Source: Escherichia phage vB_EcoM_phAPEC6
Reading direction: 5' to 3' (one strand)
Sequence record: MK817115.1
Length of the DNA: 64,000 nucleotides
Part shown: piece by piece, positions 35,628 to 54,148 of the stretch
Numbering within the stretch: position 1 is the stretch's first letter
How the letters are laid out: each line of letters starts with the position of its first letter
The notes under the pieces: generated by a model
Seen by the model: the letters and a program-made list of their open reading frames with translations, nothing else
Told to the model about the DNA's origin: nothing
Database searches by the model: none
Translations under genes and position numbers: made by a program

Positions 35628-35846
35628 ATTTTATACGATTCATATAAAAAGTCAATAACATTTTATTCGTAATACCCCTTTATCGAAGTCGCTAAGGTTA
35701 CCCGCCCTTTAGCCCCCTACGCATTTTGCCATAGTCCAATCCCTTTTATTTCAAAAAAGTCAAGGGATTACCTATGCATTTTTTTAACGCATAATTTTAA
35801 AAACGCCTTGACTTTTTTCTGAATCAGTACTAGATCCCTTTACGCA
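35628..35846 (-). promoter_or_regulatory. regulatory region upstream of family B array (promoter-like TTGACT-N16-TAAAAT plus inverted and direct repeats)
   Basis: minus-strand TTGACT..TAAAAT about 40 nt upstream of array start; inverted repeat AATCCCTT..AAGGGATT; repeated cctttacgcatt-like motif three times. Confidence 0.4.
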
Positions 35847-36056
35847 TTAATCCTTCGTTACGCTAACGATTATCTGTGTATCCCCGTAGTCCTGCCATAC
35901 TTCCACGCCATCGGTCGCCCTGGTTAGTCGTGCTGTCATCTGCTTAATGGTCTTAGGCTTTAGTGGAACCTGTTGCAGTACTGTACGCATAGCATCATTG
36001 ACGTTATCATGTACGCCTGCAATAGTACCTAGAACGCTGTATACTGTATAGAACAT
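35847..36056 (-). CDS. hypothetical protein (69 aa)
   Basis: ORF track; SD AGGAG upstream; small hairpin GGCCGC..GCGGCC upstream. Confidence 0.6.
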   Translation of the reverse strand: MFYTVYSVLGTIAGVHDNVNDAMRTVLQQVPLKPKTIKQMTARLTRATDGVEVWQDYGDTQIIVSVTKD

Positions 36057-36124
36057 ATGTATGTACTCCTGATATAGTTAAGGCCGCTACAAGGCGGCCT
36101 ATGATGTTTGGTGATGTGTAACGC

Positions 36125-36526
36125 TTACAGTCCTAAGATAGTGCGTGCTTCGTTACGTTCCGTACACAGCTGCATGATGTGAGCAAGTAAGTCCTTGCTA
36201 ATGTATCCGTTGTCCATAGCTTCACGGATAGATACATCATAAGCACCGAACCCCGTGCGAACGATACGCACATCATTCAGGTTAGTATTATAGATACCGC
36301 CGAGATCAACGGCTTCGAATACTACATCAACAGAATATTCATTGTTGCCATCGTGGAAGTTTTCCAGTGCAATAGTATTGGATACCGCCCAACGTTTGCA
36401 GTTTCCAATGATGCGGCACTGTTCCGGTTGGATAGTGCCATTACTTACAGCGTACTCCAGTGCATCTTTACCGAAAGTCCGAGCCAGTACTAAAACGTCA
36501 GCGAAGGAATTGATTGAGAAGGTCAT
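36125..36526 (-). CDS. hypothetical protein (~133 aa)
   Basis: ORF track 36125..36559; start moved to MTFSINSF Met behind SD AAGGAG; track N-terminal extension translates the promoter hairpin. Confidence 0.6.
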   Translation of the reverse strand: MTFSINSFADVLVLARTFGKDALEYAVSNGTIQPEQCRIIGNCKRWAVSNTIALENFHDGNNEYSVDVVFEAVDLGGIYNTNLNDVRIVRTGFGAYDVSIREAMDNGYISKDLLAHIMQLCTERNEARTILGL

Positions 36527-36547
36527 GATAAAACTCCTTAATTTAGG

Positions 36548-36612
36548 AGGGAGAACCATTTCCCCCTCTCTATGTAAAACATTATACTTGATTCTAAGTA
36601 CTATGCAAGTAC
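36548..36612 (-). promoter_or_regulatory. early-type promoter + 5' GC hairpin cassette (PeSL-like)
   Basis: minus-strand TTGCAT-N16-TATAAT followed by hairpin around GGGAGAACCATTTCCCCC, then SD and ATG. Confidence 0.55.
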
Positions 36613-36615
36613 TTT

Positions 36616-36948
36616 TTACATTTTAATACCTGGATTCAGGTAGCGGTGAGATCCATATTCTGGATCGGTTTCGGTCCAGTACTGTAAATCTATAGTACCT
36701 TTAGCGTTAATCTTGTCTACCAGCTTATTCATCTTAGCGTATACTACATCAGCATCGATGCGTTTAAAGCCAGTAGCTTTAGTGAAGTAGTAGTGATTTG
36801 CTTCACTATCATTAAGGATATACCGAGCACCGTTTGCAGTCTGTGCGATAATGATTGAGTATTCTACTTCCCGATCCAGACCGTCGATGAATACAGATGA
36901 AACATTGGTACGGATGAAAGCTTTAACGATAGCGATTGAAGTACTCAT
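36616..36948 (-). CDS. hypothetical protein (110 aa)
   Basis: ORF track; SD AGGAG; own promoter TTGACA-N17-AATAAT upstream. Confidence 0.65.
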   Translation of the reverse strand: MSTSIAIVKAFIRTNVSSVFIDGLDREVEYSIIIAQTANGARYILNDSEANHYYFTKATGFKRIDADVVYAKMNKLVDKINAKGTIDLQYWTETDPEYGSHRYLNPGIKM

Positions 36949-37153
36949 TTTGAATCTCCTAACTTTGTGGGCCGTCGCACCATTGCCGCCCTACGAGATA
37001 CATTATTGCAGTACTGATATACTTTGTCAATACTTTTTTATTAATAGTTTTAGTTCCACCAGCAGATAGTTACTCACCGTTATTAACTATATATTTTGGA
37101 TACACTCCTGCACCCAGTGGGCTAGTTTTTGTCTATGCGTATATAATAGCAAA

Positions 37154-37181
37154 GGGACTGACCGGAGTCAATCCCTTTTTT
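37154..37181. terminator. intrinsic terminator hairpin (conserved repeat-element copy 1)
   Basis: GGGACTGAC-cgga-GTCAATCCC followed by TTTTTT on plus; A-run on other side (bidirectional potential). Confidence 0.45.
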
Positions 37182-37192
37182 ATTCTTTTTTG

Positions 37193-37393
37193 TTAGATGA
37201 TTCTCCAATCTTCTACGATCATGGTAAGATAACGGACCATCGATTCAAGTGATTCGAATTCCCGATAGTCTGCCGCTCCACCAGCGGTACAAGTACAGCC
37301 GATTAAACCATTTTGCAATTCCTTAATCTGTACATCGATAAGGTTGGCTTTAGCTTCTTTCAGTACTTCAACCAGGGCGATAGCGATAGACAT
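37193..37393 (-). CDS. hypothetical protein (66 aa)
   Basis: ORF track; SD GGAGT. Confidence 0.6.
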   Translation of the reverse strand: MSIAIALVEVLKEAKANLIDVQIKELQNGLIGCTCTAGGAADYREFESLESMVRYLTMIVEDWRII

Positions 37394-37415
37394 AATGTTT
37401 TACTCCAAACTATTA

Positions 37416-37476
37416 GCGGGAGAACTATTCCCCCGCTCTATGTAAAACATTATACATTACTGGTTAGTACTGTCAA
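37416..37476 (-). promoter_or_regulatory. early-type promoter + 5' GC hairpin cassette (PeSL-like)
   Basis: TTGACA-N16-TATAAT then hairpin GCGGGAGAACTATTCCCCCGC. Confidence 0.55.
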
Positions 37477-37483
37477 ATAGTTT

Positions 37484-37741
37484 TTATGAAATATCTTCGA
37501 TGTAGTCGGCCCATTTCATTTTTTCAGTACTGTCAATGGCTACCGGATTATTTGGATCAAACCATTCACCATTACCGCAGTACATACCAACGGCTACGGT
37601 TTTATAGCCATCCTGGGCCGTACTCCACGACATTGCACGATAGATATGGCCTTTAACTGGTTGCAGTACTGGTAATGTTTTATGGTCTTCTACGTAGGCC
37701 ATAGCTTGAGGATTTACCCGATATTGTGTGAACTGTTCCAT
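37484..37741 (-). CDS. hypothetical protein (85 aa)
   Basis: ORF track; SD AAGGGGA; promoter TTGACA-N17-TGTAAT upstream. Confidence 0.6.
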   Translation of the reverse strand: MEQFTQYRVNPQAMAYVEDHKTLPVLQPVKGHIYRAMSWSTAQDGYKTVAVGMYCGNGEWFDPNNPVAIDSTEKMKWADYIEDIS

Positions 37742-37817
37742 TATGTTTCCCCTTGTAGTTAGTAAAGTTATTACATCAGTACTATCAAGCTATGTCAATA
37801 GTACTGAAATAAAACTT

Positions 37818-38042
37818 TTAGATTAGATTATTGATGCCTGAAATGGTAGACTCACTTTCTTCTTTCTCCCATTGGCGGTAGTACTTCCACGCTTCATGAT
37901 AGGTGGCGATCAGTTCATCTTTTTGATCCTGAGTACATGCCAGTACTGAATCACTGTAAGCGGTGTTATAGATAGAATCGAATGATTTCTTCTCTTCTGC
38001 CAGGTTAGCTACTTCCCGCATCAGTTCATCAAAGTTAGCCAT
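37818..38042 (-). CDS. hypothetical protein (~74 aa)
   Basis: ORF track 37818..38087; start moved to MANFDEL Met downstream of hairpin. Confidence 0.55.
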   Translation of the reverse strand: MANFDELMREVANLAEEKKSFDSIYNTAYSDSVLACTQDQKDELIATYHEAWKYYRQWEKEESESTISGINNLI

Positions 38043-38061
38043 TTTAGTACTCCTTATTAGT

Positions 38062-38120
38062 GGGGGAGGATATCTCCCCCTATGCAAAACATTATACTTT
38101 GTTTTAGTTATTATGCAAGT
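38062..38120 (-). promoter_or_regulatory. early-type promoter + 5' GC hairpin cassette (PeSL-like)
   Basis: TTGCAT-N16-TATAAT then perfect hairpin GGGGGAG-gatat-CTCCCCC. Confidence 0.55.
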
Positions 38121-38374
38121 ACTTTTTTCATATAAACATTAAATTCTACACCGCCGTAACCTTCTACGATGATATGTTTTGCGTTATCACGTTTGCACAT
38201 AGTGAAACCGTTGTTGATGTGTTCTGCATTTTCCAGGGCGACATCACCGATAGCGGCACATACGGCACTAATAACAGTATTCCGCAAAGTACTGGTATCA
38301 TTAGCGGTCATAGTAGTTTGCAGTACTACGTTGTCGTATACGTGTGCATTGATAGTGATTTCGATAGTGTTCAT
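38111..38374 (-). CDS. hypothetical protein (87 aa)
   Basis: ORF track; SD AGGAG. Confidence 0.6.
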   Translation of the reverse strand: MNTIEITINAHVYDNVVLQTTMTANDTSTLRNTVISAVCAAIGDVALENAEHINNGFTMCKRDNAKHIIVEGYGGVEFNVYMKKVLA

Positions 38375-38391
38375 GGTGTATCTCCTGCACA

Positions 38392-38455
38392 GTCGGGAGA
38401 ACTATTCCCCCGCTCTATGTAAAACATTATACGTTAATCTAACTACAATGCAAGT
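38392..38455 (-). promoter_or_regulatory. early-type promoter + 5' GC hairpin cassette (PeSL-like)
   Basis: TTGCAT..TATAAT then hairpin GAGCGGG..CCCGCTC. Confidence 0.55.
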
Positions 38456-38460
38456 ACTTT

Positions 38461-38652
38461 TTAAATTTTATTTCCGATATAGTCCGGTCTATTCTTTTCG
38501 GTCATACGCTTTGCTAATGTTTGCATATGGCTTATTGCGTTTAATGTGTCTTCCTCCAGGGATGAATCAACATAATCAGGATCATTCTTCACCTTGCAAT
38601 GATTATGATAGCGTAGTACTGCCAGTACTTTTTTAACTTCTTCTACTGTCAT
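38461..38652 (-). CDS. hypothetical protein (63 aa)
   Basis: ORF track; start overlaps stop of upstream gene. Confidence 0.55.
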   Translation of the reverse strand: MTVEEVKKVLAVLRYHNHCKVKNDPDYVDSSLEEDTLNAISHMQTLAKRMTEKNRPDYIGNKI

Positions 38653-38921
38653 AATAAGTACCCCACTTCGTTAGCTTTCAGGTTAGTATCAATCATCAGT
38701 GGATTTTTGTAGTTCACAAAACGATTAGTTTTCTCGATAGCGAATCCCATATAATCCAGCTTACTAACAGTACATTCATTCTTAAAAACTTCTTTCGCTG
38801 CATTGATGGCTGATTCAATTGATAACCGACCATCTAAGTTAATGTTTCCAAATGATCCACCAGCAGAAGTAGGATTACCGTTCATATCTTTAATGATCAT
38901 AGTAGCGGAGTAGCTAGACAT
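38649..38921 (-). CDS. hypothetical protein (90 aa)
   Basis: ORF track; SD AAGGAA. Confidence 0.6.
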   Translation of the reverse strand: MSSYSATMIIKDMNGNPTSAGGSFGNINLDGRLSIESAINAAKEVFKNECTVSKLDYMGFAIEKTNRFVNYKNPLMIDTNLKANEVGYLL

Positions 38922-38943
38922 AATTTTGTTTCCTTTTAGTATC

Positions 38944-39002
38944 GGGGAGAACTATTCTCCCCTTGATGTAAACTATTATACAGTACTAAGATACTTTGTC
39001 AA
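38944..39002 (-). promoter_or_regulatory. early-type promoter + 5' GC hairpin cassette (PeSL-like)
   Basis: TTGACA-N16-TATAAT then hairpin GGGGAGAA-cta-TTCTCCCC. Confidence 0.55.
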
Positions 39003-39005
39003 TAC

Positions 39006-39227
39006 TTAATTACGTTTAAAATGATATGTGCCTTTATCATCCTGTACGCCCCATACTGATTTACCATCAACACCAGTGAAACCGGATTGTAATTCAATAT
39101 GGAAACCATTATTATCAACTACAAAAACTTTTTTATTTTCATCCCGATAACATTGATATTCTGAATCAACATTAAAGGCCGCATCATTCAGAAGATTGGA
39201 AGCGTAAATGCAAGTCATTGTAGTCAT
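39006..39227 (-). CDS. hypothetical protein (~73 aa)
   Basis: ORF track 39006..39302; start moved to MTTMTCIYAS Met behind SD AAGGAA. Confidence 0.55.
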   Translation of the reverse strand: MTTMTCIYASNLLNDAAFNVDSEYQCYRDENKKVFVVDNNGFHIELQSGFTGVDGKSVWGVQDDKGTYHFKRN

Positions 39228-39247
39228 GATTTTATTCCTTATTGCCA

Positions 39248-39308
39248 GGGAGAACCATTTCCCCCTCTCGATATAAAACATTATACTTGATTCTAAGTAC
39301 AATGCAAG
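39248..39308 (-). promoter_or_regulatory. early-type promoter + 5' GC hairpin cassette (PeSL-like)
   Basis: TTGCAT-N16-TATAAT then hairpin GGGAGAACCATTTCCCCC. Confidence 0.55.
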
Positions 39309-39422
39309 TACTTTTTATCAAATACTTTAAAATAGTTTTCAGTACTGAATACTTATATAATAGATACACTTATGCACCCTGTGGGTCAGTGAGTTATCTC
39401 TCAATGAATATATATTAGCAAA

Positions 39423-39450
39423 GGGACTGACCGGAGTCAATCCCTTTTTT
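39423..39450. terminator. intrinsic terminator hairpin (conserved repeat-element copy 2)
   Basis: GGGACTGAC-cgga-GTCAATCCC + TTTTTT on plus; lies just downstream of kinase-like gene stop on minus. Confidence 0.45.
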
Positions 39451-39458
39451 AATCTTTT

Positions 39459-40043
39459 TTATCGTGTTATAGTTACGGCTTTTACATCACGCTTTTTATA
39501 GTACTGATTCCAGATATTGCGGGTTAAACCGTAATCAAGTACTTTAATAAGTCCATTACGATCCTGGCCGATATTCTGTTTTCTGATATCTCTTATCGTT
39601 AGTGTTGATAATGTATCATCGACGTGTTGTAGTGCATCAGCAAAGCGGTGCTGGCGTTCAATGGCATTACGTTTAATATTGTACTTTAATTCGTTGCACG
39701 CGTTAACGTGCTTCACACTGCCTTTACTTGCAGTACTCAACCGATCCATAACGATAAACATATTATCAGGATCGCATAAATGCATATGCACCTTTGCAAA
39801 GTACTGTTTCAATTGAGGGCGGTCATAGTCTAAAAAATTCCATACCTTACATTCAGTTTCATTTTGTTCTACACCCGCATCACAATTGGCGACCTTAATC
39901 ACTAACCGATCATTTAAAGCGAATACGATACGGGAAGAACCCGCCCCGATGATCTCCAGGCCAGCTAACCGACAAGCTGAAAGGATCTCTTTGTTGGTTT
40001 CCATTTCTGACAGTGTACGGATGAATTTAGTATAATTACGCAT
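39459..40043 (-). CDS. putative Ser/Thr protein kinase-like protein
   Basis: ORF track 39459..40100, start moved to Met behind SD AAGGAG; Gly-rich loop IGAGSSRIVF, VIKV lysine, catalytic-loop-like RDIRKQNIG, DYG (DFG-like) motif. Confidence 0.5.
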   Translation of the reverse strand: MRNYTKFIRTLSEMETNKEILSACRLAGLEIIGAGSSRIVFALNDRLVIKVANCDAGVEQNETECKVWNFLDYDRPQLKQYFAKVHMHLCDPDNMFIVMDRLSTASKGSVKHVNACNELKYNIKRNAIERQHRFADALQHVDDTLSTLTIRDIRKQNIGQDRNGLIKVLDYGLTRNIWNQYYKKRDVKAVTITR

Positions 40044-40074
40044 TGCATGTTCTCCTTGAGTTAATGAAACTATC

Positions 40075-40317
40075 TTACAGTACTTTACTATCAATGGCAA
40101 CCACTTTTTTCACACTAACCGCGTGAATCACTTCCTTAGTGTTTTTAGTACTGAATACTTTCGCTGTTCCTTGTTCTACTGCAATGCGATAACGACCGTT
40201 AACATCAACCATATTAATAAAGTCCGGTGTACTAAACCGAGTAGTACGGCATTTCAGTACTGTTAACAATTCCACCAGCGATGTAGTTTCTTTGATACGT
40301 TTTTCTAAAGTAATCAT
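40075..40317 (-). CDS. hypothetical protein (80 aa)
   Basis: ORF track; promoter TTGACA-N17-TACTAT upstream. Confidence 0.6.
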   Translation of the reverse strand: MITLEKRIKETTSLVELLTVLKCRTTRFSTPDFINMVDVNGRYRIAVEQGTAKVFSTKNTKEVIHAVSVKKVVAIDSKVL

Positions 40318-40375
40318 TTTGTTTTCCCCCGTGTTGGTATGTACATATAGTACTAAAACATTTGAGTACTGTCAA

Positions 40376-40594
40376 TTAGATAATAGAATATTTCTTTAGT
40401 GATAATGCGTCTTCTGTCGGTTGATATTCTACACCGTTCCCGTTATCAACCTTAGTGAGTAAACCTTTATCAATGAGTTTTTTGATGGTACGGTTTCCCT
40501 GTTGAAAACTGGTGAAGTGTGAATCATTACGAAAGGTATAACCGTGCTTCACTGCTTCATCAATAGTTTTCTTTTCGATTTTAGATAATTTCAT
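40376..40594 (-). CDS. hypothetical protein (~72 aa)
   Basis: ORF track 40376..40654; start moved to MKLSKIEK Met because promoter TTGACA-N17-TATTAT overlaps the track N-terminus. Confidence 0.55.
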   Translation of the reverse strand: MKLSKIEKKTIDEAVKHGYTFRNDSHFTSFQQGNRTIKKLIDKGLLTKVDNGNGVEYQPTEDALSLKKYSII

Positions 40595-40650
40595 TTTGTT
40601 TCTCTCTCTGTGTTGGTATAGATACATAATACTAAAACAATTGAGTACTG

Positions 40651-40905
40651 TCAACGTGATATTAGTTTTATTTTTTTATTGTATTGTTGGTGTTCATATA
40701 GATTAATTTTTCCAGTACTCTCAATTACTATTCTATTGTTAGTGTCTACATCGATAACACGTAGTTTCCCGTTGCTTAACTTCCTGGGTAATAGACTACC
40801 ATTAATAAACTCATTAGCAAGCTGTACGGCCTTTGTGATGATTCTCTGTGGTGCTTTATAGTGTACCCGCAAGATATTATCTTTAGATAGTTGTACCTTC
40901 ATCAT
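40651..40905 (-). CDS. hypothetical protein (84 aa)
   Basis: ORF track; SD AGGAT. Confidence 0.6.
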   Translation of the reverse strand: MMKVQLSKDNILRVHYKAPQRIITKAVQLANEFINGSLLPRKLSNGKLRVIDVDTNNRIVIESTGKINLYEHQQYNKKIKLISR

Positions 40906-40920
40906 TTTAGTTTATCCTAT

Positions 40921-40946
40921 AAAAAAAGGCGGGAACTGAACCCGCC
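40921..40946 (-). terminator. intrinsic terminator
   Basis: hairpin GGCGGG-aactgaa-CCCGCC with T-run on minus side (A7 on plus) directly after stop of 40970..41365. Confidence 0.5.
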
Positions 40947-40969
40947 GTGTTGTTAGTACTGCAAAGTTA

Positions 40970-41365
40970 TTAGATAACCTGGCGGCGTTTACTGTATACT
41001 GTTACACGGTTTCCTTTACGGTCATGACGGATCTCTTTCTGGTTACGAATCAGTTCACTTGGACGCTTAAGGTTTGCCAGGTGATCCGCGTGAGTCCATG
41101 CATTTGCGTTAACTGTAACTTCAATATCAGAACCTTTCAAAAAGTCATCTTGAGCGTTCAGTACTTCAGCCAGTTCTTGAGCTTGCTTTAGTTCTGCTTC
41201 AGTAAGTACAGGCTCAGGTGAATTCACAATATCAGAGATCTCTTTGAACTGTACCGCCCAGCGTTGTCCTTTCGGTGCATCTTTGCCCATGTCTTTAAAT
41301 GTTTCACCTTCTTCACGAGCAACGATGCGAGCTTGTTCACGGGTAGCGAAGAATTTAGTAATCAT
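40970..41365 (-). CDS. hypothetical protein; paralog of 52987..53253
   Basis: ORF track; shares FATREQAR..TFKDMG..RKGNRVTVY with 52987..53253. Confidence 0.6.
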   Translation of the reverse strand: MITKFFATREQARIVAREEGETFKDMGKDAPKGQRWAVQFKEISDIVNSPEPVLTEAELKQAQELAEVLNAQDDFLKGSDIEVTVNANAWTHADHLANLKRPSELIRNQKEIRHDRKGNRVTVYSKRRQVI

Positions 41366-41464
41366 GGTGTACATCCTATTAGTTAAGTTAATTAGTACTA
41401 CAAGTTAGAGTCTATTATAAAGTACTATCTGGGCAATGTCAAATAGTACTTTAAATGGATTCTA

Positions 41465-41788
41465 TTACATGTCTTTTTTACGTTTTACATCGTAGTAACG
41501 AACTGTAATTTCTTTGTTGATCTCATCCTCAATTCTGTGTAGTACTTTCTCTTTCGGGTTGAAACCTATTACAGTTTCTTTAATGATCTCCAAGCCCGTG
41601 TATTCGCCTTGTGTACCGTAACCGTAAGTAAAGGTTTCATGTCCCAGGTCTTCCCAGCGGTCACCAATCAATGCAGACACGTAGCATGAGTGGTAAGTAT
41701 TGCCGTGGCTATCAGTCCACCGATTAACTTTAATGTCAAAGGAAGTTACAATTTTCATTTCTACTTTCTGGGCAAGGATCATAGTCAT
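41465..41788 (-). CDS. hypothetical protein; paralog of 47657..48001
   Basis: ORF track 107 aa; shared GNTY.S, YGYG, DVKRKKD with 47657..48001. Confidence 0.6.
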   Translation of the reverse strand: MTMILAQKVEMKIVTSFDIKVNRWTDSHGNTYHSCYVSALIGDRWEDLGHETFTYGYGTQGEYTGLEIIKETVIGFNPKEKVLHRIEDEINKEITVRYYDVKRKKDM

Positions 41789-41875
41789 TTTAATTTCTCT
41801 CTTTTTGTTAGGAAGGGAACCATTCCCCTCACTTGATGTAAACTATTATACAGTACTAAGATACTTTGTCAATAC

Positions 41876-47576: not shown

Positions 47577-47656
47577 TATACTATCTTCTTAAGTTAATTT
47601 AATTTCTTTCCCCTATGCAGACACTATATCAAAGTATCTGCATAAAGTAAAGCTAA

Positions 47657-48001: not shown

Positions 48002-48082
48002 TTTAATTTCCTCTTAGTTGTCTTGATAAAATCTATTATGCCAGTACTATCAAACTATGTCAATAGTACTGTGATAATATTT

Positions 48083-48226: not shown

Positions 48227-48312
48227 ATTAGTTTCCTCATTATCAGGGAGAACCATTTCTCCCCTTGATGTAATGTATTATACTTTATCTGATTTACTTT
48301 GCAAGTACTTTT

Positions 48313-48540
48313 TTAATTTAATTCATCCAGGCAAAGGATACGCTCAACGCCCAAATCAGTTAAACTAATCGACGGCACTTGATAGGTTTCAATGTATGCT
48401 ACACTTGCCCACTGACCGAACTCATTAACGGCCCATTTATCCATTGCAAAATGCAATTCCGCACCTTTCTTATTAGTAATTACAGCAACAGTAGAAGAAT
48501 TGCCAGTAGTACCAGTTACGCGAGTGATTACGATAGCCAT
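48313..48540 (-). CDS. hypothetical protein (~75 aa)
   Basis: ORF track 48313..48597; start moved to MAIVITRV Met downstream of hairpin. Confidence 0.55.
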   Translation of the reverse strand: MAIVITRVTGTTGNSSTVAVITNKKGAELHFAMDKWAVNEFGQWASVAYIETYQVPSISLTDLGVERILCLDELN

Positions 48541-48775
48541 TGTTTTAATTCCTTTGATTTGGAAGGAGAACCGTTTCCCCCTCTCGATGTAAAACATTAT
48601 ACGCTAATCTCTTAATCGTGCAAGTACTTTTTATTACTTTTTGCAAAATACTTTAAACGCACTCAATCGCGTTCTTACAGCCTTAACGCCACCAGCTAGG
48701 GCAATGCATCAGATAATCAGTTTAATGCGTTAGAATCGATTCTAGGCGGTGCTGGTGGCCTGGTAAACGTTAAAC

Positions 48776-48803
48776 ACAAAAAAGCCCACTTATGCAGTGG
48801 GCT
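48776..48803 (-). terminator. intrinsic terminator
   Basis: hairpin AGCCCACT-tatgc-AGTGGGCT followed by T-run on minus (A-run on plus) after stop of 48825..49307. Confidence 0.5.
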
Positions 48804-48824
48804 AGTGATTCAGTACTTTAATTG

Positions 48825-49307
48825 TTATGCTTCCACTTTGCGATGAGCTTCGATCCATTCCTCGCGAGTCATACCGCTGGAGTTAATCGCATCCAGTACT
48901 ACCGCAATGCAGTTACCACGCACCGGAATCAGATATTCTTCCCCGTTGTCCAGTACTACCGCTACACGTTTTTGAATCCATTTTTTAGGCTTAGATTCCG
49001 GCTTATCTTCCCCATACTTAACCGCCAGGGCTTTTTGTGCCATCTCTGTAACTACTTCCAGATCCAATCCAACTACTGCCGCCTGAATACTTTCAATTGT
49101 TGCTTGTAGTTCTGCTTCACGGGCCGCCTTTGCCGCTTCAATTTCTGCCGCTTTATTTGCTTGTAGTTCTTTCGCAGTACTATAAGCGATGTTAAAATTA
49201 TTGCGTACCGCTTTCATGGTATCGTTATCCAGATCAGCCAGGATCTCTGCCGCGACGTTAGTTTCATTTGCTACCAGTGCTTTGATGAATGATTTTACAT
49301 TAGCCAT
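48825..49307 (-). CDS. hypothetical protein (~160 aa), Ala/Glu-rich central helix
   Basis: ORF track 48825..49322; start moved to MANVKSF Met behind SD GAGGAT. Confidence 0.6.
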   Translation of the reverse strand: MANVKSFIKALVANETNVAAEILADLDNDTMKAVRNNFNIAYSTAKELQANKAAEIEAAKAAREAELQATIESIQAAVVGLDLEVVTEMAQKALAVKYGEDKPESKPKKWIQKRVAVVLDNGEEYLIPVRGNCIAVVLDAINSSGMTREEWIEAHRKVEA

Positions 49308-49350
49308 TTTATAAATCCTCAATTAAAGTTTAGTTTACGTTGGTTAGTGT

Positions 49351-49421
49351 ATCAAAGTTTTCTCGACGTGTCCAGTTTTTCGTTCGACTTACTGGCGGTC
49401 TACTTAGTGCTCCCCGTCTTG
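49351..49421 (-). ncRNA. structured 5' leader element, diverged copy 3
   Basis: partial sequence similarity to leaders at 42508-42581 and 52314-52389; sits between promoter TTGACA-N16-TAGAAT and gene start. Confidence 0.25.
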
Positions 49422-49510
49422 ATGTAATATATTCTACGCCTTTTTGCGGTAATGTCAACTATTTTTTAAAACTATTTTCAAAGTATCTCAGTACTACGAT
49501 ACTACAAAAA

Positions 49511-49534
49511 CAAAAAAAGCCCACCAGGTGGGCT
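49511..49534 (-). terminator. intrinsic terminator
   Basis: perfect hairpin GCCCACC-a-GGTGGGC with T-run on minus side (A7 on plus) after stop of 49541..49771. Confidence 0.5.
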
Positions 49535-49540
49535 ATGTAC

Positions 49541-49771
49541 TTAATCAGTAATTAAAACATTAAACACTTTATCATTTAACGTTATGGGTGTACTGCTACC
49601 AGGCTTGAGATCAGTTAGTACACCTGCAATAGCTTTTTCATTGGCGACCTTTCCAGTGTCCAACAGTACTACAGTACTGATAAGATTAACGCTCGTTTCA
49701 ATATCATAATGCACGGCGTTAAGTAGTTGTGTAGTACTGCTTTCGTTAAGTAAAACAATTCGCTTAGTCAT
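49541..49771 (-). CDS. hypothetical protein (76 aa)
   Basis: ORF track. Confidence 0.6.
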   Translation of the reverse strand: MTKRIVLLNESSTTQLLNAVHYDIETSVNLISTVVLLDTGKVANEKAIAGVLTDLKPGSSTPITLNDKVFNVLITD

Positions 49772-49792
49772 GATGTTACCCCGTAGTATCTA

Positions 49793-50092
49793 TCAACGGC
49801 AATTAATAACGCCAGTATGAGTTACTTTCTCAGTATCCATAACAGTGACCGAACCGCGTTTAGTACTTGCATCGTAATAAATTGTCGTGCTACCGTTTTC
49901 GTCTTCTTCATGGAACGGGCCGTTTTTAAATGCTTCCGGCTGGATCTCTAAATCCTTTAAAACAATCTCGCCAGTACTTTCATCGGTCATTGCAACAGTG
50001 CACTGAATGAATTTTTCACTACTTACATCTAATGACGCATTAACAGCGAAAGAGGAAACAGATAAAGCCAGGGCGATGATTGCAATTTTCAT
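49793..50092 (-). CDS. small secreted/exported protein (N-terminal signal peptide)
   Basis: ORF track 99 aa; N-term MKIAIIALALSVSSFAVNA has signal-peptide features; SD AGGAT. Confidence 0.5.
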   Translation of the reverse strand: MKIAIIALALSVSSFAVNASLDVSSEKFIQCTVAMTDESTGEIVLKDLEIQPEAFKNGPFHEEDENGSTTIYYDASTKRGSVTVMDTEKVTHTGVINCR

Positions 50093-50112
50093 TTGATTAT
50101 CCTTAGTTACCA

Positions 50113-50173
50113 GGGGGAACCGCTCCCCCCTTGCGATGTAAAATATTATACAGTACTAAAAACTAATTGCAAG
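50113..50173 (-). promoter_or_regulatory. early-type promoter + 5' GC hairpin cassette (PeSL-like)
   Basis: TTGCAA-N16-TATAAT then hairpin GGGGGAA-ccg-CTCCCCC. Confidence 0.55.
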
Positions 50174-50177
50174 TACT

Positions 50178-50414
50178 TTATGATTTTTTATAAAACATTT
50201 CGGCAGTGATATTTTTACCCGTTGGTTGTACTTTATCCAGAATTTTTTGATGTCCAGGGCGACCAAATGAATAAGATCCGTAAACCGTAAACCAGTAGTT
50301 ACCCTCAGTGTTTACATGTACAGCACAATAGGGAACGCCCCGCGATTCATCACTAGTAAAGTGTGATACCGTACCCGTTACATTCGCAGACGTTGATTTG
50401 ATTTGTTCGACCAT
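50178..50414 (-). CDS. hypothetical protein (78 aa)
   Basis: ORF track; SD AGGAA. Confidence 0.6.
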   Translation of the reverse strand: MVEQIKSTSANVTGTVSHFTSDESRGVPYCAVHVNTEGNYWFTVYGSYSFGRPGHQKILDKVQPTGKNITAEMFYKKS

Positions 50415-50522
50415 TTTCTTATTCCTTAGTTACCAGGGGAACCGCTCCCCCTATGCAAAACATTATACGCGTTTAAAAACTAATAGCAAGTATTTTAATA
50501 AAAAGTATTTGGAAAATAATTG

Positions 50523-50551
50523 TTGACAAGTGCATCCAGTACTGGCATAAT
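50523..50551 (+). promoter_or_regulatory. plus-strand sigma70-like promoter (antisense orientation)
   Basis: TTGACA-N17-CATAAT on plus strand; no plus ORF downstream. Confidence 0.4.
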
Positions 50552-50621
50552 TACTACATCAAGACGAAACAGTCACTAACCCACCGGGTGCCGAGATCCG
50601 TCTATTAAATGATTCAGTACT

Positions 50622-50650
50622 AAAAAAAGAAAGGGGATCAATTGATCCCC
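50622..50650 (-). terminator. intrinsic terminator
   Basis: perfect palindrome GGGGATCAATTGATCCCC with T-run on minus side, directly after stop of 50657..50878. Confidence 0.55.
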
Positions 50651-50656
50651 TCGTTG

Positions 50657-50878
50657 TTATTTTGTAAGGTATAAACAGAAGTCACCTTTATTTGCTACGC
50701 CGCCAGTGTAACGCGAGGAATAGTTAGAAACGTCCTGGACTTCTGCTATTACCAGGGTATCATCATTCAATTCGTCGCAGAAGCAAACGGCTGGATCTTG
50801 TACGCCGATATTGTCGGCATGTTCCCGCATAGATTTAACCAGTGCTTCAAGTTGGGAAAGAGTAGTGATATTAGCCAT
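50657..50878 (-). CDS. hypothetical protein (~73 aa)
   Basis: ORF track 50657..50908; start moved to MANITTLS Met downstream of hairpin. Confidence 0.55.
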   Translation of the reverse strand: MANITTLSQLEALVKSMREHADNIGVQDPAVCFCDELNDDTLVIAEVQDVSNYSSRYTGGVANKGDFCLYLTK

Positions 50879-50961
50879 TTTATTTTCCTCATTACCAGGG
50901 AGAACCATTTCTCCCCTTGATGTAAACTATTATACAGTACTAAAAACTAATTGCAAGTACT

Positions 50962-51243
50962 TTAACTGTAAGATCCGCAACGGTCGCAGTAGTGCCCCTC
51001 GTCATCGTCAACGAATTGACCAACGAAATTATCTACTTTCGCTTTCAGGTTATTATAATCGTTTTCTACTTCATTTAAACGCTTCTGGTAGTATTCCAGT
51101 GCTTTAAGATATGCCGCATCAGCAGTTTTCTCCTGCATAGCTAAATTCATGCCACGCGTTTCATCGTACAGCCAAAAACCATCGGTGCACTGGCTAATAG
51201 ATAATGACTTGCTTAGTACTGTATAGTTAATTACTTTACTCAT
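50962..51243 (-). CDS. hypothetical protein (~93 aa), Cys-rich C-terminus
   Basis: ORF track 50962..51324; start moved to MSKVINYT Met downstream of hairpin GGCGGGAAccatTCCCCGCC. Confidence 0.55.
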   Translation of the reverse strand: MSKVINYTVLSKSLSISQCTDGFWLYDETRGMNLAMQEKTADAAYLKALEYYQKRLNEVENDYNNLKAKVDNFVGQFVDDDEGHYCDRCGSYS

Positions 51244-51301
51244 TAGATAAACCCTCAATAAAGGCGGGAACCATTCCCCGCCATTGTTACAGTACTGAAT
51301 A

Positions 51302-51541
51302 TTACATTCCAACCATTGCAGCACGGATCGCAGTAGTGCTATACTTAAAGCCGTCCGGCGTTGTAGTAGTACCGTTGGCTTTTAATCTGCGGTACATGCA
51401 TTCCGCTGCAATATCTTTAGTTCTACTTTGTGCGATACAACTTTGTGCAAGCCGATACAATGACTCACCGTTATTAATCCATAAGGAAACATTCCAATGA
51501 GTTTTGTTTTTGTGCCCGTTGTAAGTTTTAGTACTAGCCAT
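51302..51541 (-). CDS. hypothetical protein; paralog of 53339..53578
   Basis: ORF track 79 aa; shared HKNKTHWNVSLWINN..LYRLAQ..PDGFKYSTTAIRAAMVGM. Confidence 0.65.
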   Translation of the reverse strand: MASTKTYNGHKNKTHWNVSLWINNGESLYRLAQSCIAQSRTKDIAAECMYRRLKANGTTTTPDGFKYSTTAIRAAMVGM

Positions 51542-51633
51542 TTTTTTTAATCCTCGTTTGAGCGGGGAACCACTCCCCGCCTCGATATAAAGTATTATAC
51601 GCTTTTAAACTTAGTTTGCAAGTACTTTTTAAA

Positions 51634-52245
51634 TTAATATTCGATTGATTCTACTACGCCATCAATAACATTGAATTGATATTCGTTACCCTCAATCAGT
51701 GCTGTAATGTTTTCAGTAGTGAATTGATCCTCATATGCATTCTCTAAATCACGGTACAACTTGCGGGATAATTCACGAATAGTTTCAGTGAGTAGTTCCT
51801 CAAGCTCATTAACTAACGTTTCTTGTTTTGCGGTTAAATCAGTGTAAGCCGATTCAATGTACCCGCTTACAGTGTTTTCATGCGAGTAGTGGGAGTGAGA
51901 ACGCTTTACACTCATCGCCAAATCATCTTCATTCAGCAGGTGACGGATTGAGCGATACTTAGTTAATGCTCTTACCTTGCGTAAAAACTTCACTGCGTCA
52001 ACGTGGTCAGTACTGATTGATGCACCGTCACCCTGGGACCAAAAACCACTGAATTGTATTTCAGCGTCATTAATGCCATATTCCGGCAATACTGTTTCTT
52101 TATAGTGTTCAATTTCACTTTCAGAAAAATAATCGTCGTTTGAGTTTTTTTCACGTTCCCGAACCAGTTCGATAGCTGACGTTTTTTGTTCTGCGTTCAA
52201 TTCAGAAAAATCCATAACATAAGTAGTAGTAGTGATAGTTTTCAT
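51634..52245 (-). CDS. acidic hypothetical protein (203 aa)
   Basis: ORF track; SD AGGGT; preceded by tandem promoters and structured leader copy 2. Confidence 0.6.
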   Translation of the reverse strand: MKTITTTTYVMDFSELNAEQKTSAIELVREREKNSNDDYFSESEIEHYKETVLPEYGINDAEIQFSGFWSQGDGASISTDHVDAVKFLRKVRALTKYRSIRHLLNEDDLAMSVKRSHSHYSHENTVSGYIESAYTDLTAKQETLVNELEELLTETIRELSRKLYRDLENAYEDQFTTENITALIEGNEYQFNVIDGVVESIEY

Positions 52246-52313
52246 TTTGTAACCCTCATTCAGTAGTTTATGTAAGTATTATACGCTTTTAAAAACAATT
52301 GTCAAACTATTTT

Positions 52314-52389
52314 ATCAGGGGAGTTTTTCGTGTGCCTTACTCCTGGGCTACTTAACGGGAAGTTACTTATTTCGTTCCCCGTCCTGATG
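52314..52389 (-). ncRNA. conserved structured 5' leader element, copy 2
   Basis: near-identical to 42508-42581 with some differences falling in predicted stems; flanked by promoters TTGCAA..TATAAT and TTGACA-N16-TATAAT. Confidence 0.35.
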
Positions 52390-52467
52390 TAAAACATTAT
52401 ACGCCTTTAAACATAGTTTGCAAGTACTTTTTAAAAATAGTTTTCAGTACTGAATAGTAAAAAGGTA

Positions 52468-52496
52468 TTGACAGCACTATCCAGTACTGGTATAAT
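52468..52496 (+). promoter_or_regulatory. plus-strand consensus sigma70 promoter (antisense orientation)
   Basis: perfect TTGACA-N17-TATAAT on plus strand; no plus ORF follows. Confidence 0.45.
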
Positions 52497-52670
52497 ATAC
52501 CCCATGACAACAGCTAACCCACCGGGTGCACAATTGTAACTGTACTAAACTACTTTTTCTATAGATACACTCCCGCACCCTATGGGCTACGGCTTATCTG
52601 CCAATGAATACATTATGCCAGTACTGACAAAATAAGTCAATACCGGCAATTGTAAAGATTTGTAAACTAC

Positions 52671-52901
52671 TTATACTGCAATCGCGTCCAGGCTATAATA
52701 ATAATAAGTGCCGTATTGGTGTACTTTATTACCTTTTATTTCAGTACTGAATGAATCCGAACGATTGGCATATGATGTTAATTTATAGTACTTTACTTTA
52801 CTAATACGTTGCCATACACCGCAGATCCGCTGTAAGTAAGTAGTTTTATTTGTGGTAGTATCTTTTACGGCTTTCAATTCGATCATATACATAGTGGTCA
52901 T
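52671..52901 (-). CDS. hypothetical protein (76 aa)
   Basis: ORF track; SD AGGAG. Confidence 0.6.
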   Translation of the reverse strand: MTTMYMIELKAVKDTTTNKTTYLQRICGVWQRISKVKYYKLTSYANRSDSFSTEIKGNKVHQYGTYYYYSLDAIAV

Positions 52902-52986
52902 TTTATTACTCCTTGCTTTAGTGGGGAACTATTCCCCACCTGATATAAAGTATTATACGCGTTTAAACTTAGTTTGCAAGTACTTT

Positions 52987-53253
52987 TTATTCAAGTACTG
53001 CGATCTTTTTAATACGGTACACGGTCACGCGGTTGCCCTTTCGGTCGAGCTTTATTTCTACCACTCGACGCGATACACTATCAGGACTTTTCAACGCCGC
53101 TAACCAGTACTGTAATGATCTGGCGGTACTACGCTTTACAATGGCCCAACGTTTACCACGTTCCGATTGTACGCCCATATCTTTAAACGTTGCCCCGTCC
53201 TGGCGTGCGGCGATCCGAGCTTGTTCACGCGTCGCAAAATACTTAATATTCAT
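52987..53253 (-). CDS. hypothetical protein; paralog of 40970..41365
   Basis: ORF track 52987..53289; start moved to MNIKYFATREQAR Met behind SD AAGGG. Confidence 0.6.
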   Translation of the reverse strand: MNIKYFATREQARIAARQDGATFKDMGVQSERGKRWAIVKRSTARSLQYWLAALKSPDSVSRRVVEIKLDRKGNRVTVYRIKKIAVLE

Positions 53254-53338
53254 GCTGTTGCCCTTATCGTTGGTGTATGAATAAAACACTATTATAAAGT
53301 ACTATCGCAAAAAATGATAGTACTTTAAATAAATTCTA

Positions 53339-53578
53339 TTACATTCCAACCATTGCAGCACGGATCGCAGTAGTGCTATATTTGAATCCGTCCGGTGTTT
53401 TATCTTGTCCAGTCTGTTCTAAAAATAACATCATATGACGGGCCGCATCATTACGATTAGTATTGGCGGCAATAAAGTCCTGGGCCAACCGGTATAATGA
53501 TTCATCGTTATTAATCCAAAGGCTTACATTCCAATGAGTTTTGTTTTTGTGACCTAAGAACATTTTTGATTTAGCCAT
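53339..53578 (-). CDS. hypothetical protein; paralog of 51302..51541
   Basis: ORF track 53339..53617; start moved to MAKSKMFLGHKNKTHW Met by paralog alignment and SD GAGGAT. Confidence 0.6.
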   Translation of the reverse strand: MAKSKMFLGHKNKTHWNVSLWINNDESLYRLAQDFIAANTNRNDAARHMMLFLEQTGQDKTPDGFKYSTTAIRAAMVGM

Positions 53579-53671
53579 TTTTTTAATCCTCTTATATAGT
53601 GGGGAACTATTCCCCACCTGATGTAAAACATTATACGCTTTTAAACATAGTTTGCAAGTACTTTATTAAAC

Positions 53672-54034
53672 TTATTCGTAAATTTTGCCACTGTCAGCCC
53701 ATACCAGGAAACGAGGCATATTATCCCATGCATCTTGTTTTAAATTTAAACCGTGTAATACTTCTGTACTTTCCATTCCTGGTACTGGTTTACTATACAC
53801 CGCAAATAGTTCACCCATATACTGATAAGCCATCGTTAAATCACTGGCGATCATCTTATGGATCATCGCATCAAGCATCACGGTAGCGGCGTATTGTTCA
53901 CGCTTAAGCGGTAACATTGCAATAAGTTCCCGATAAGCTGAAATGTGAATTTTTACCGTTTCAGCCGGAAGACCTTTCATCTCTTCACGGAAGTTAACCA
54001 GGTTAGCAATAATTTTATTGATTTGAGTCGCCAT
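53672..54034 (-). CDS. hypothetical protein (~120 aa)
   Basis: ORF track 53672..54091; start moved to MATQINKI Met downstream of hairpin AGCGGGAAgtgtTCCCGCT. Confidence 0.55.
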   Translation of the reverse strand: MATQINKIIANLVNFREEMKGLPAETVKIHISAYRELIAMLPLKREQYAATVMLDAMIHKMIASDLTMAYQYMGELFAVYSKPVPGMESTEVLHGLNLKQDAWDNMPRFLVWADSGKIYE

Positions 54035-54148
54035 CGTTTTCATCTCTCTTACAGTGTAGCGGGAAGTGTTCCCGCTCTCGATGTAAAACATTATACGCTT
54101 TTAAACATAGTTTGCAAGTACTTTCTACATGTACTTTTAAAATAGTTT

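Follow-up and report, generated by a model that had tools for sequence, protein, structure and literature searches.

A block of small genes at 35.8-54.1 kb of the 64-kb stretch of phage DNA analysed here (the window) carries a repeated module in which a sigma70 promoter is followed by a short hairpin, and selection for pairing in this element acts on the transcribed strand, that is, on an RNA hairpin. The window belongs to a jumbo E. coli phage of Asteriusvirus type (PBECO4/121Q-like; PBECO4 is an Asteriusvirus), and its best match is Escherichia phage SHEFM2K (95.6%). Every gene of the block lies on the minus strand, and our reading of the ORFs gives about 53 of them, all small. The original prediction had placed a cassette before nearly every gene, which is too high: about 36 have a promoter of their own and 23-25, just under half, have the full cassette upstream. 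About 17 genes do without one, being coupled to the preceding gene or placed after it.

Near-consensus sigma70 promoters had been proposed throughout the block, and these are abundant. Counting as strong any site that agrees with TTGACA or TTGCAA, N16-18 and TATAAT at 11 or more of the 12 positions, we found 35 strong promoters on the minus (coding) strand of positions 35,800-54,200 and 6 on the plus strand, with 1.1 ± 1.0 expected from first-order Markov simulations. The coding-strand promoters recur about every 300 bp, all stacked on one strand. The proposed extent of the block was also correct: cassette -35 sites run from 54117 in the first to 36608 in the last, with the minus strand used throughout. 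However, the predicted figure of about 35 cassettes is the promoter count; the hairpins number 23 canonical, one variant and three long structured variants. The full module is about 85 bp long and near-identical between copies, with six parts in fixed order. It opens with an A-rich stretch and an AGTACT abutting the -35, continues through TTGCAA or TTGACA, a 16-bp spacer often ending in AGTACT, TATAAT, a conserved start region ((G/A)nTTTACAT) and a G-rich/C-rich hairpin of 7-10 bp, and closes with an A-rich linker containing the Shine-Dalgarno site, followed by ATG (often ATGGCT). The predicted framing of the promoter by AGTACT is real. Separately, AGTACT is about 13-fold over-represented in the window, which also holds nine small-RNA-like units.

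In the 23 canonical cassettes the hairpin starts 8-14 nt past the -10 and ends 14-23 nt (median 19) before the ATG, and the hairpin criteria are satisfied at just 1.9% of random window positions. A covariance model trained on 10 hairpins and run over the whole window returned 22 matches, all on the minus strand within 36,543-53,622, and none in the rest of the 64 kb. As had been claimed, no U-tract follows the hairpin in any of the 23 cases; the tails are A-rich (for example ACTAATAAGG), and genuine U-tract terminators occur elsewhere in the block at 40946, 48803, 49534 and 50652. Being downstream of the -10 and lacking a U-tract, the hairpins are best read as 5′-leader structures and not as terminators, in agreement with the prediction.

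All canonical cassettes are on the minus strand. Those with the promoter TTGCAA-16-TATAAT lie at 54041..54126 (hairpin 54076-54058, AGCGGGAA cac TTCCCGCT; ATG 54043), 53576..53666 (hairpin 53618-53598, GGTGGGGAA tag TTCCCCACT; ATG 53578), 52899..52988 (hairpin 52940-52920; ATG 52901), 51539..51630 (hairpin 51581-51561, GGCGGGGAG tgg TTCCCCGCT; ATG 51541), 50876..50965 (hairpin 50916-50897, GGGGAGAA atgg TTCTCCCT; ATG 50878), 50090..50181 (hairpin 50131-50112; ATG 50092), 48224..48313 (hairpin 48264-48245; ATG 48226), 46696..46786 (hairpin 46737-46718 with an internal G·U pair; ATG 46698), 46468..46557 (hairpin 46508-46489; ATG 46470) and 45880..45970 (hairpin 45920-45902; ATG 45882). TTGACA-16-TATAAT is found at 45445..45535 (hairpin 45486-45468; ATG 45447), 42149..42240 (hairpin 42191-42173, GTGGGGAA tag TTCCCCAC; ATG 42151), 41786..41881 (hairpin 41830-41812 with an internal G·U pair; ATG 41788), 38919..39011 (hairpin 38962-38944; ATG 38921) and 37391..37485 (hairpin 37437-37415, 10 bp; ATG 37393), and TTGCAT-16-TATAAT at 39225..39316 (hairpin 39266-39247; ATG 39227), 38372..38462 (hairpin 38412-38394; ATG 38374), 38040..38127 (hairpin 38080-38062, GGGGGAG atatc CTCCCCC; ATG 38042) and 36524..36617 (hairpin 36568-36547; ATG 36526). 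The remaining promoters are TTGCTA-16-TATAAT at 50412..50498 (hairpin 50453-50434; ATG 50414), TTGCAC-16-TATAAT at 48538..48632 (hairpin 48583-48562 with two internal G·U pairs; ATG 48540), TGGACA-16-TATAAT at 43396..43484 (hairpin 43435-43416; ATG 43398) and one with a weak -10 (TTGCAT ... TATAGT/TTATAG) at 43670..43754 (hairpin 43708-43690; ATG 43672).

The variants are likewise on the minus strand. A TTGACA-17-AATAAT cassette at 36946..37039 (-35 at 37030) has the leader GGGCGGCAATGGTGCGACGGCCC, of a stem type common in Phapecoctavirus nepoznato, and drives the gene at 36948-36616. In a long variant at 52306..52432, the cassette promoter (-35 at 52423) drives about 80 nt of structured RNA without an ORF, and directly afterwards comes a second TTGACA promoter (52305), which drives the gene at 52245-51634; a second copy at 42500..42624 (-35 at 42615) precedes promoter 42499 and the gene at 42441-42241. 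A diverged long variant, TTGACA-16-TAGAAT at 49305..49467 (-35 at 49458), places a leader of about 120 nt before the gene at 49307-48825. Ten strong promoters of the same family, spanning 37743..52314 on the minus strand (-35 at 52305, 48063, 45215, 44946, 44164, 42499, 41442, 40654, 40375 and 37798), have no hairpin, and their leaders fold with energies of 0 to -3 kcal/mol. Possession of the hairpin follows the -35 type: 19 of 19 TTGCAx promoters have it as against 8 of 18 TTGACA promoters (Fisher p=1.3e-4). Four further elements, separate from the cassettes, have a promoter inside a hairpin (37178, 39447, 42751 and 46090).

Pairing was assessed on 90 model matches (65 distinct) from the window and related loci. 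Paired cells made up 98.0% of the total, compared with 89.3% after shuffling and 59-88% after sliding; compensatory double changes occurred at 4 of 8 stem pairs (57 cells), and the covariation score of 0.39 (versus 0.21) was reached in 0 of 500 shuffles. The predicted maintenance of the stem by compensatory changes is thereby upheld. Sixty-six distinct stems occupy the same position, and unrelated ones are among them: Serratia phage BF has GGGTAAGC/GCTTACCC and GACAGGAGA/TCTCTTGTC, nepoznato has AGCGGCA/TGCCGCT, and a further example is GGTTAAGGA/TTCTTAACC. With strand-symmetric detection, non-Watson-Crick pairs were of G·U type in 29 cases and of A·C type in 6 (p=1e-4), and the sense fold was the more stable in 53 of 80 cases (p=4e-5). 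Orthologue comparisons supplied no more than 6 stem substitutions, a number too small for a test. Together, the compensatory changes and the strand-specific G·U pairs demonstrate selection on an RNA structure. The loops are free to vary (tag, atgg, atga, gcgg, cac, atatc, acatc, aatacc), and one orthologous loop is inverted over an unchanged stem (cac in the window, gtg in PBECO4). Perfect palindromes account for about a third of the stems. The G-rich or purine-rich arm is always the 5′ one, apical GAA/UUC pairs are kept in about 85% of 88 distinct copies, and the loops often end in RG before the UUC. The purine-rich 5′ arm and conserved apical pairs could reflect descent or sequence-specific recognition, and not generic structure.

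The original prediction matched these units to the PeSL (promoter-early stem-loop) cassettes of T4-type phages, which are known from RB49/phi1, PST/T4 and nt-1/KVP40 (PMC2839356, PMC4122927). Both recur as units no longer than about 100 bp, in which an AT-rich stretch lies upstream and an early sigma70 promoter close to consensus is combined with a GC stem-loop, a Shine-Dalgarno site and a start codon. Both are concentrated in variable small-ORFan regions, at places where close relatives differ by insertions, deletions and gene replacements. The match fails on position. The published PeSL stem-loop lies between the -35 and -10, over the -10 or just upstream of the promoter, and acts as a terminator or attenuator of upstream transcription (PMC2839356, PMC4122927), whereas the window hairpin is always downstream of the -10, in the transcript, 8-14 nt past it, without a U-tract and optional; strict identity was therefore rejected. 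The phage itself is Rak2-like and not of Tevenvirinae type. Within that clade, vB_PcaM_CBB and GAP32 have clusters of RpoD-like early promoters which, as in the window, combine short hypothetical ORFs with consensus sigma70 promoters after a UP-like element, 18 such promoters being reported for CBB (PMC5259590). The words stem-loop and hairpin are absent from that paper, and the leader hairpin and AGTACT framing are not described in it (PMC5259590).

Transcription is predicted to begin at the A of the conserved TTACAT, 7-8 nt past the -10, which would put the hairpin 3-5 nt from the 5′ end of every early mRNA. Our tentative preference for its function, at a little short of even confidence, is that of a generic leader by which the message is protected and insulated. 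Attack by RppH and RNase E that depends on the 5′ end would be limited, 3′ exonucleases would be blocked in read-through transcripts from an upstream promoter, and the ribosome site would keep the same surroundings with any ORF attached. Emory, Bouvet and Belasco reportedly found in 1992 that E. coli mRNA is stabilised when a stem-loop lies within 2-4 nt of its 5′ end, and the ompA and papA 5′ UTR stem-loops are said to be stabilisers of this kind (that work and Bricker and Belasco, 1999, both cited in PMC3997798). Like them, the window hairpin is a simple stem-loop near the (predicted) 5′ end whose stem is free to vary while paired; unlike them, it is a repeated cassette and not the property of single genes, and its predicted overhang of 3-5 nt, against the 2-4 unpaired nucleotides at most that they need, is at the edge of the rule and counts against protection. 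Against RNase E scanning, an ordinary stem-loop within a 5′ UTR affords next to no protection (PMC11194081). The hairpin is also dispensable, since ten equally strong block promoters and most same-family promoters of relatives lack it. Regular intercistronic RNA structures between early genes are known from T7, where RNase III hairpins end up protecting message ends; those hairpins are long, irregular duplexes that extend over about 20 bp or more, and the 7-10-bp window stems would be too short for RNase III.

The conserved apical GAA/UUC, the frequent RG before UUC and the always G-rich 5′ arm would also suit a tag for a trans-acting factor, a phage RNA-binding protein or nuclease that co-regulates the tagged early messages by timed shut-off, selective translation or processing, much as T4 RegA and RegB act on early mRNAs. 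A defined early-gene subset is indeed marked, as the bias towards TTGCAx promoters indicates. We nevertheless consider a tag rather unlikely, because the loops vary freely, the cac/gtg inversion left its stem unchanged, and the BF and nepoznato stems have no sequence in common with those of the window. A quite improbable alternative is an attenuator or terminator like the PeSL stem-loop, limiting read-through from the upstream promoter; each gene would then be expressed mainly from its own promoter. In its favour, promoters are stacked about every 300 bp on one strand, and the RB49 PeSL stem-loop, which is GC-rich and described as polyG/polyC tracts, lowered lacZ expression about as well as rrnB T1 (PMC2839356). 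However, a hairpin that follows its own promoter would dampen its own gene and read-through to the same degree, all 23 lack the U-tract that classical terminators in the block use, and the PeSL layout already belongs to the four promoter-in-hairpin elements, whose stem lies over the -35 and is followed by a T-rich tail.

That the element acts as DNA is very unlikely. The candidates are a palindromic operator bound by a dimeric repressor a little past the start, a cruciform or recombination site, and an N4-type hairpin promoter used by a phage RNA polymerase. The perfect palindromes, the clustering of breakpoints in cassettes (below) and the cac/gtg change, which shows that the palindrome has flipped at the DNA level, fit such roles. 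Yet a double-stranded operator would show no G·U over A·C asymmetry, and the stems covary rather than stay conserved. Also against this reading, sigma-factor genes are annotated in CBB (PMC5259590), and the Rak2-like relative PA5oct is reported to depend on host RNA polymerase (PMC7318152). Least probable of all, and very unlikely, is that the hairpin signals antitermination in the manner of lambda nut boxB or HK022 put, likewise promoter-proximal RNA hairpins of early transcripts; RNA polymerase from the cassette promoters would then resist downstream terminators such as the four in the block. Those signals are conserved in sequence, are present in one or two copies per genome and act together with terminators downstream; the window carries over 20 copies whose stems and loops vary, and no boxA-like partner motif was seen by eye in the conserved leader. 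Since the tagged genes are mostly single short ORFs, each followed by the next promoter, antitermination would gain little.

The proposed role as recombination modules fits the data: of the 33 synteny breakpoints with related phages, 22 lie inside cassettes, which cover 20% of the block (p=1e-8), although cassettes are the intergenic DNA and breakpoints within them are confounded with those that simply separate genes. The acetyltransferase module at 43735-44154, missing from PBECO4, is an example. Seven gene segments are common to the window and the Vequintavirinae phage A73 (75-86% nucleotide identity), which has four such cassettes of its own; cassette-plus-gene modules are shared with Vequintavirinae and Stephanstirmvirinae phages, and nepoznato has identical cassette geometry. 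Among same-family promoters of relatives, 129 of 382 have the hairpin, and those of Eneladusvirus, Munch and other relatives are mostly without it (0-20% in those genera). As far as sequence comparison can tell, these patterns support a PeSL-like shuffling role, in which the 85-bp homology would provide a crossover site and cassette-plus-ORF units would be swapped, lost and gained, even between phage families. The cassette is a variant on known phage promoter/stem-loop shuffling modules in which the leader-hairpin arrangement is new, and for the reading as a whole, in which the block is a host-RNA-polymerase-dependent early region made of self-contained expression modules, we judge the chances even.

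All plausible genes at 35.8-54.1 kb of the vB_EcoM_phAPEC6 window lie on the minus strand. Over 45,000-54,200 the best match, Escherichia phage SHEFM2K, reaches 95.6% along the full length of that stretch, and mosaic matches come from PBECO4, which is classed as an Asteriusvirus, and from SP27, slurp01, 121Q and other ~350-kb E. coli and Salmonella phages. Reading of the sequence yielded about 53 genes in this block; their starts were set by that reading and by their placement relative to the hairpins described below, not by a Shine-Dalgarno-based caller, which took ATGs within hairpin loops and missed genes. ARAGORN found no tRNA genes in the block. Just downstream, at about 28000-35600, lies a long series of closely spaced paralogues, each about 70 codons in length, with 4-nt overlaps and no intervening promoters; in the SHEFM2K counterpart of this run (locus L002, 6200-12150), about two dozen genes are assigned to PHROG 4148.

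A site counted as a promoter if it agreed with TTGACA or TTGCAA and, across a spacer of N16-18, with TATAAT at 11 or more of the 12 positions; first-order Markov simulations served as the null. The coding strand of 35,800-54,200 holds 35 such sites, 11 of them perfect TTGACA-16/17-TATAAT, compared with 6 on the opposite strand and 1.1 +/- 1.0 in the simulations, which bears out the near-consensus sigma70 promoters foreseen ahead of the block's genes. The original prediction also placed a full cassette (promoter, leader hairpin, Shine-Dalgarno site and ATG) before nearly every gene. This went too far: a promoter of its own stands before about 36 genes and the full cassette, about 85 bp long, before 23-25, and about 17 lack a promoter. 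The promoter part of the cassette has the consensus aaAAAGTAC-TTGCAA-N16-TATAAT-(G/A)nTTTACATc, the spacer often ending in ...TTAGTACTG, and is followed by (a/g)a, the stem-loop-stem, aCTAAnAAGGAaannAAA and ATG(GCT). The stop codon of the upstream gene often abuts or overlaps the A-tract/AGTACT of the cassette, and the genes are therefore packed as units of cassette plus ORF. A hairpin or long variant stands behind all 19 promoters with a TTGCAx -35 but behind only 8 of 18 with TTGACA (Fisher p=1.3e-4); whole cassettes, it follows, propagate as units. Many cassette-driven genes start with ATGGCT, several opening with ATGGCTAATATC (protein MANI...), as at 50878, 48001, 45447, 38042, 49307, 53578, 51541, 48540 and 45153; the similarity between cassettes thus extends into the first codons.

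A hairpin-first scan identified 23 canonical hairpins with stems of 7-10 bp and loops of 3-5 nt, the Gs being in the 5′ arm and the Cs in the 3′ arm. These hairpins begin 8-14 nt past the -10 and end 14-23 nt (median 19) ahead of the ATG, and random positions satisfy the same hairpin criteria in 1.9% of cases. With ten of the hairpins as its basis, a covariance model recovered 22 copies, every one of them on the minus strand from 36,543 to 53,622; the rest of the 64 kb has none. The predicted figure of about 35 cassettes consequently stands for promoters but not for hairpin-bearing units, which comprise the 23 canonical hairpins, a variant whose -35 is at 37030 and three long structured forms (52423, 42615 and 49458); at ten strong promoters of the block the leader is unstructured. 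The hairpins had also been expected to lack a U-tract, and this is so for all 23, whose tails are A-rich. None was called by a terminator scan for a GC stem with a U-tract, which located classical U-tract terminators in the block at 40946, 48803, 49534 and 50652. Rfam covariance models run against 34-56 kb at E<=1 returned only chance-level matches, none of them relevant, and the cassette hairpin fits no Rfam family. The ATG that some loops contain (ATGG or ATGA) was considered as an upstream start codon, but it shares the frame of the gene in only 4 of 8 cases and was judged coincidental. The stems are probably too short for an RNase III site. Two orphan hairpins of the cassette type occur on the minus strand with no promoter upstream (51263-51282 and 54802-54820); the former is followed by TTTATT after the stem and by a gene at 51243-50962.

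To assess selection on the structure, the window was pooled with SHEFM2K, PBECO4, the Rak2-like phages Munch, fHe-Yen9-04 and Serratia BF, the Vequintavirinae phage A73, Phapecoctavirus nepoznato and 58 IMG/VR stretches, most of them on contigs of about 350 kb, carrying a AAGTACTTGCAW-N16-TATAAT promoter. A hairpin begins 8-15 nt past the -10 at 129 of 382 promoters of this family, giving 66 distinct hairpins. The stems at that position include GGGGAGAA/TTCTCCCC, GTGGGGAA/TTCCCCAC, AGCGGGAA/TTCCCGCT, GGGTAAGC/GCTTACCC, GACAGGAGA/TCTCTTGTC, GGTTAAGGA/TTCTTAACC and AGCGGCA/TGCCGCT. Aligned with plain MAFFT, the leaders fell out of structural register and yielded only 5 pairs in RNAalifold; a covariance-model alignment was used instead. 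Across 90 model matches (65 distinct), 98.0% of cells were paired, compared with 89.3% after shuffling and 59-88% when the partner column was slid. Both sides had changed in 4 of the 8 pairs (57 cells) and the covariation score was 0.39 versus 0.21; none of 500 shuffles reached the observed paired fraction, double changes or covariation score. Compensatory covariation, which had been set as a check on the predicted selection, is thus present. Because the alignment is itself fitted to structure, the counts were repeated without it, ring by ring in Python, with a strand-symmetric detection that allowed any mismatch. G·U-type pairs outnumbered A·C-type pairs by 29 to 6 at 7 rings (p=1e-4) and by 36 to 18 at 8 rings, and for 53 of 80 hairpins the sense strand gave the more stable fold (p=4e-5). 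Palindromes acting as double-stranded DNA would lack this asymmetry, and pairing is therefore selected on the transcribed strand. A comparison restricted to orthologues offered 6 stem substitutions, too few to use. Together, these data demonstrate that the leader hairpin is an RNA structure under selection on the transcribed strand.

The sequence TTACAT after the -10 is conserved with or without a hairpin and moves one base along with the -10. Since sigma70 transcription usually starts 7-8 nt from the -10 and follows a pyrimidine-purine rule, we infer a start at the second A of TTACAT, 7-8 nt past the -10. The early message is then predicted to open with AUCA(A) followed by the stem, leaving 3-5 unpaired nt before the hairpin. 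Our leading reading is that the hairpin would protect and insulate the message; in read-through transcripts from an upstream promoter, the GC stem (-11 to -17 kcal/mol) would also halt 3′ exonucleases. As in an ompA-type stabiliser, pairing is kept over sequence, with covariation and 66 distinct stems. Work by Emory and colleagues in 1992 reportedly found that a stem-loop stabilises E. coli mRNA when it sits no farther than 2-4 nt from the 5′ terminus, a rule under which the predicted overhang is borderline. Also counting against protection, RNase E scanning is impeded only negligibly by a simple internal stem-loop (PMC11194081), and the hairpin is dispensable at the ten strong promoters with unstructured leaders as well as at most promoters of the family in Eneladusvirus, Munch and others.

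Other roles explain the data less well. As an attenuator, the hairpin would act on its own promoter, and the U-tract is missing; as a DNA-level element, it should not display the G·U asymmetry. A nut/put-like antitermination signal is difficult to reconcile with a sequence that is not conserved, and there would be little need for one. The conserved apical GAA/UUC and the constantly purine-rich 5′ arm would suit a recognition tag for a factor, but the loops vary freely and one is inverted between orthologues. At that site (54058-54076, minus strand) the loop is CAC in the window and in SHEFM2K and its reverse complement, GTG, in PBECO4 (locus L003, near 31753), while the stem is identical; the difference suggests a DNA-level flip of the loop inside the palindrome.

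The original prediction had equated these units with the promoter-early stem-loop (PeSL) cassettes of T4-type phages, and the likeness is broad but breaks down at the position and role of the stem-loop, which define a PeSL. The cassettes share with PeSLs a strong sigma70-like early promoter (35 sites versus about 1 expected), an AT-rich stretch (82% A+T, 51% A, in the 20 nt upstream, versus 66% in the window) and, at the 3′ end of the unit, a start codon preceded by an AAGGA/GAGG-type ribosome site between hairpin and ATG. They also sit among small ORFans in a hyperplastic region with indels and replacements among close relatives, all copies falling within 36.5-54.1 kb, and are tied to rearrangements. 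In RB49 and phi1, however, the stem-loop mostly occupies the interval from -35 to -10 or overlaps the -10, and a lacZ test showed it to behave as a terminator (PMC2839356). In the present cassettes no hairpin of the 23 stands ahead of the promoter, within it or across it, where it could terminate incoming transcription; all are downstream of the -10. The closer structural analogue of the PeSL in the window is not the cassette but a 12-bp hairpin containing the -35 (AAAGGGATTGAC tccg GTCAGTCCCTTT), found on the minus strand at 37151-37178, 39420-39447, 42724-42751 and 46063-46090 and followed by TTTGCTATTATAT (also given as TGCTATTAT). The terminator scan calls three of these (37178, 42751 and 46090), and they are composite terminator-promoter elements laid out as published for PeSLs. 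Two designs formerly lumped can thus be told apart, the terminator-promoter composite of the PeSL and the promoter-leader composite of the block's cassettes.

The hairpins containing the -35 drive small-RNA-like units, not protein genes. Nine such units carry the motif CCCANNGGGTG, against 0.08 expected by chance, on the minus strand at 37111-37121, 39375-39385, 42684-42694, 46018-46028 and 52576-52586 and on the plus strand at 50580-50590, 52518-52528, 54454-54464 and 54669-54679. Each has its own strong promoter, about 10 nt, a 4-6-bp stem with a covarying GAAA-type loop and the conserved core TAACCCACNGGGTGC(R)nnAnTGTATC, with no ORF and no Rfam match in the search of 34-56 kb at E<=1. Some are paired convergently (promoters at 52640 minus and 52468 plus, and at 42744 minus and 42643 plus). 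Serratia phage BF and Salmonella phage Munch have conserved counterparts of the units, and promoters in Yersinia phage fHe-Yen9-04 are followed by similar leaders. The long variants of the cassette are likewise without an ORF: the cassette promoter drives a conserved RNA, structured and about 80 nt long, on the minus strand (52306-52392 and 42500-42584), with the terminal helix ACAUCAGG/CCCCUGAU, and a second TTGACA promoter directly after it drives the gene. Further copies lie at 5602-5692 of the compared locus L001 and, diverged, at 49345-49430, and the element is common to the window and A73.

The palindrome AGTACT, usually in the context C-AGTACT-G, is the commonest hexamer of the window (270 copies versus about 21 expected). 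It was surveyed over 1-64000 and in the compared loci L002-L006, L018, L019, L044 and L058. Each cassette promoter is framed by one copy directly against its -35 and another against its -10; others occur in all three frames of long ORFs, and the motif is nearly missing at 24-28 kb (0 copies) and 32-36 kb (2 copies). Every sampled Rak2-like locus has 4-7 copies per kb, but A73 and unrelated contigs have 0.2-0.5 per kb.

The proposal that cassettes serve as recombination modules fits the alignments with PBECO4 and other loci, in which 22 of 33 distinct breakpoints between 36.0 and 54.2 kb fall inside cassettes that make up 20.5% of the block (binomial p=1e-8), several more lying within 30 nt of one. 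An acetyltransferase module (43735-44154) is exactly missing from PBECO4, which has insertions at the cassettes at 43484, 50956 and 53657, and between the cassettes at 46777 and 46548 the gene 46698-46552 is replaced. Since the intergenic DNA here is made up of these cassettes, the clustering is what cassette-mediated exchange predicts, short of proof. Exchange also appears to cross phage families: a 12-kb region of the 142-kb phage A73 contains seven segments of the block in a changed order, at 75-86% nucleotide identity, and has four cassettes, the long variant included. AGTACT is rare in A73 (0.5 per kb versus 4-7 in Rak2-like phages), and 2 of its 6 copies are in or adjoin cassettes, which hints that these came from the jumbo-phage lineage. 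The small genes of nepoznato have promoter, TTACAT, hairpin and ribosome site in the same order, with different stems. We regard as rather improbable the broader proposal that the unit is a horizontally mobile cassette across unrelated coliphage lineages (Asteriusvirus and other Rak2-like jumbo phages, Vequintavirinae and Stephanstirmvirinae), with the hairpin, beyond a passive stabiliser, a 5′ tag read by a phage or host factor to mark an early 'accessory' regulon, and AGTACT part of the same control system.

Clusters of RpoD-like early promoters before short ORFs have been described in Rak2-like phages (PMC5259590) and in rV5 (PMC3606486). Such clusters and PeSLs are therefore already known; the regular leader hairpin downstream of such promoters would be the new part. 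Our literature search found no description of it for Asteriusvirus, Rak2-like or rV5-like phages, nor of the AGTACT enrichment. The small early genes of large phages number in the hundreds, have no known function and are replaced fast. The block presents a standard plug-in unit of promoter, leader hairpin and ribosome site that is attachable to any ORF, and the same unit, cargo genes included, is present in three E. coli myovirus groups that are not otherwise related. If the hairpin stabilises or tags early messages, it would be a compact natural part for phage engineering, and it would explain how newly acquired genes are expressed immediately after transfer.
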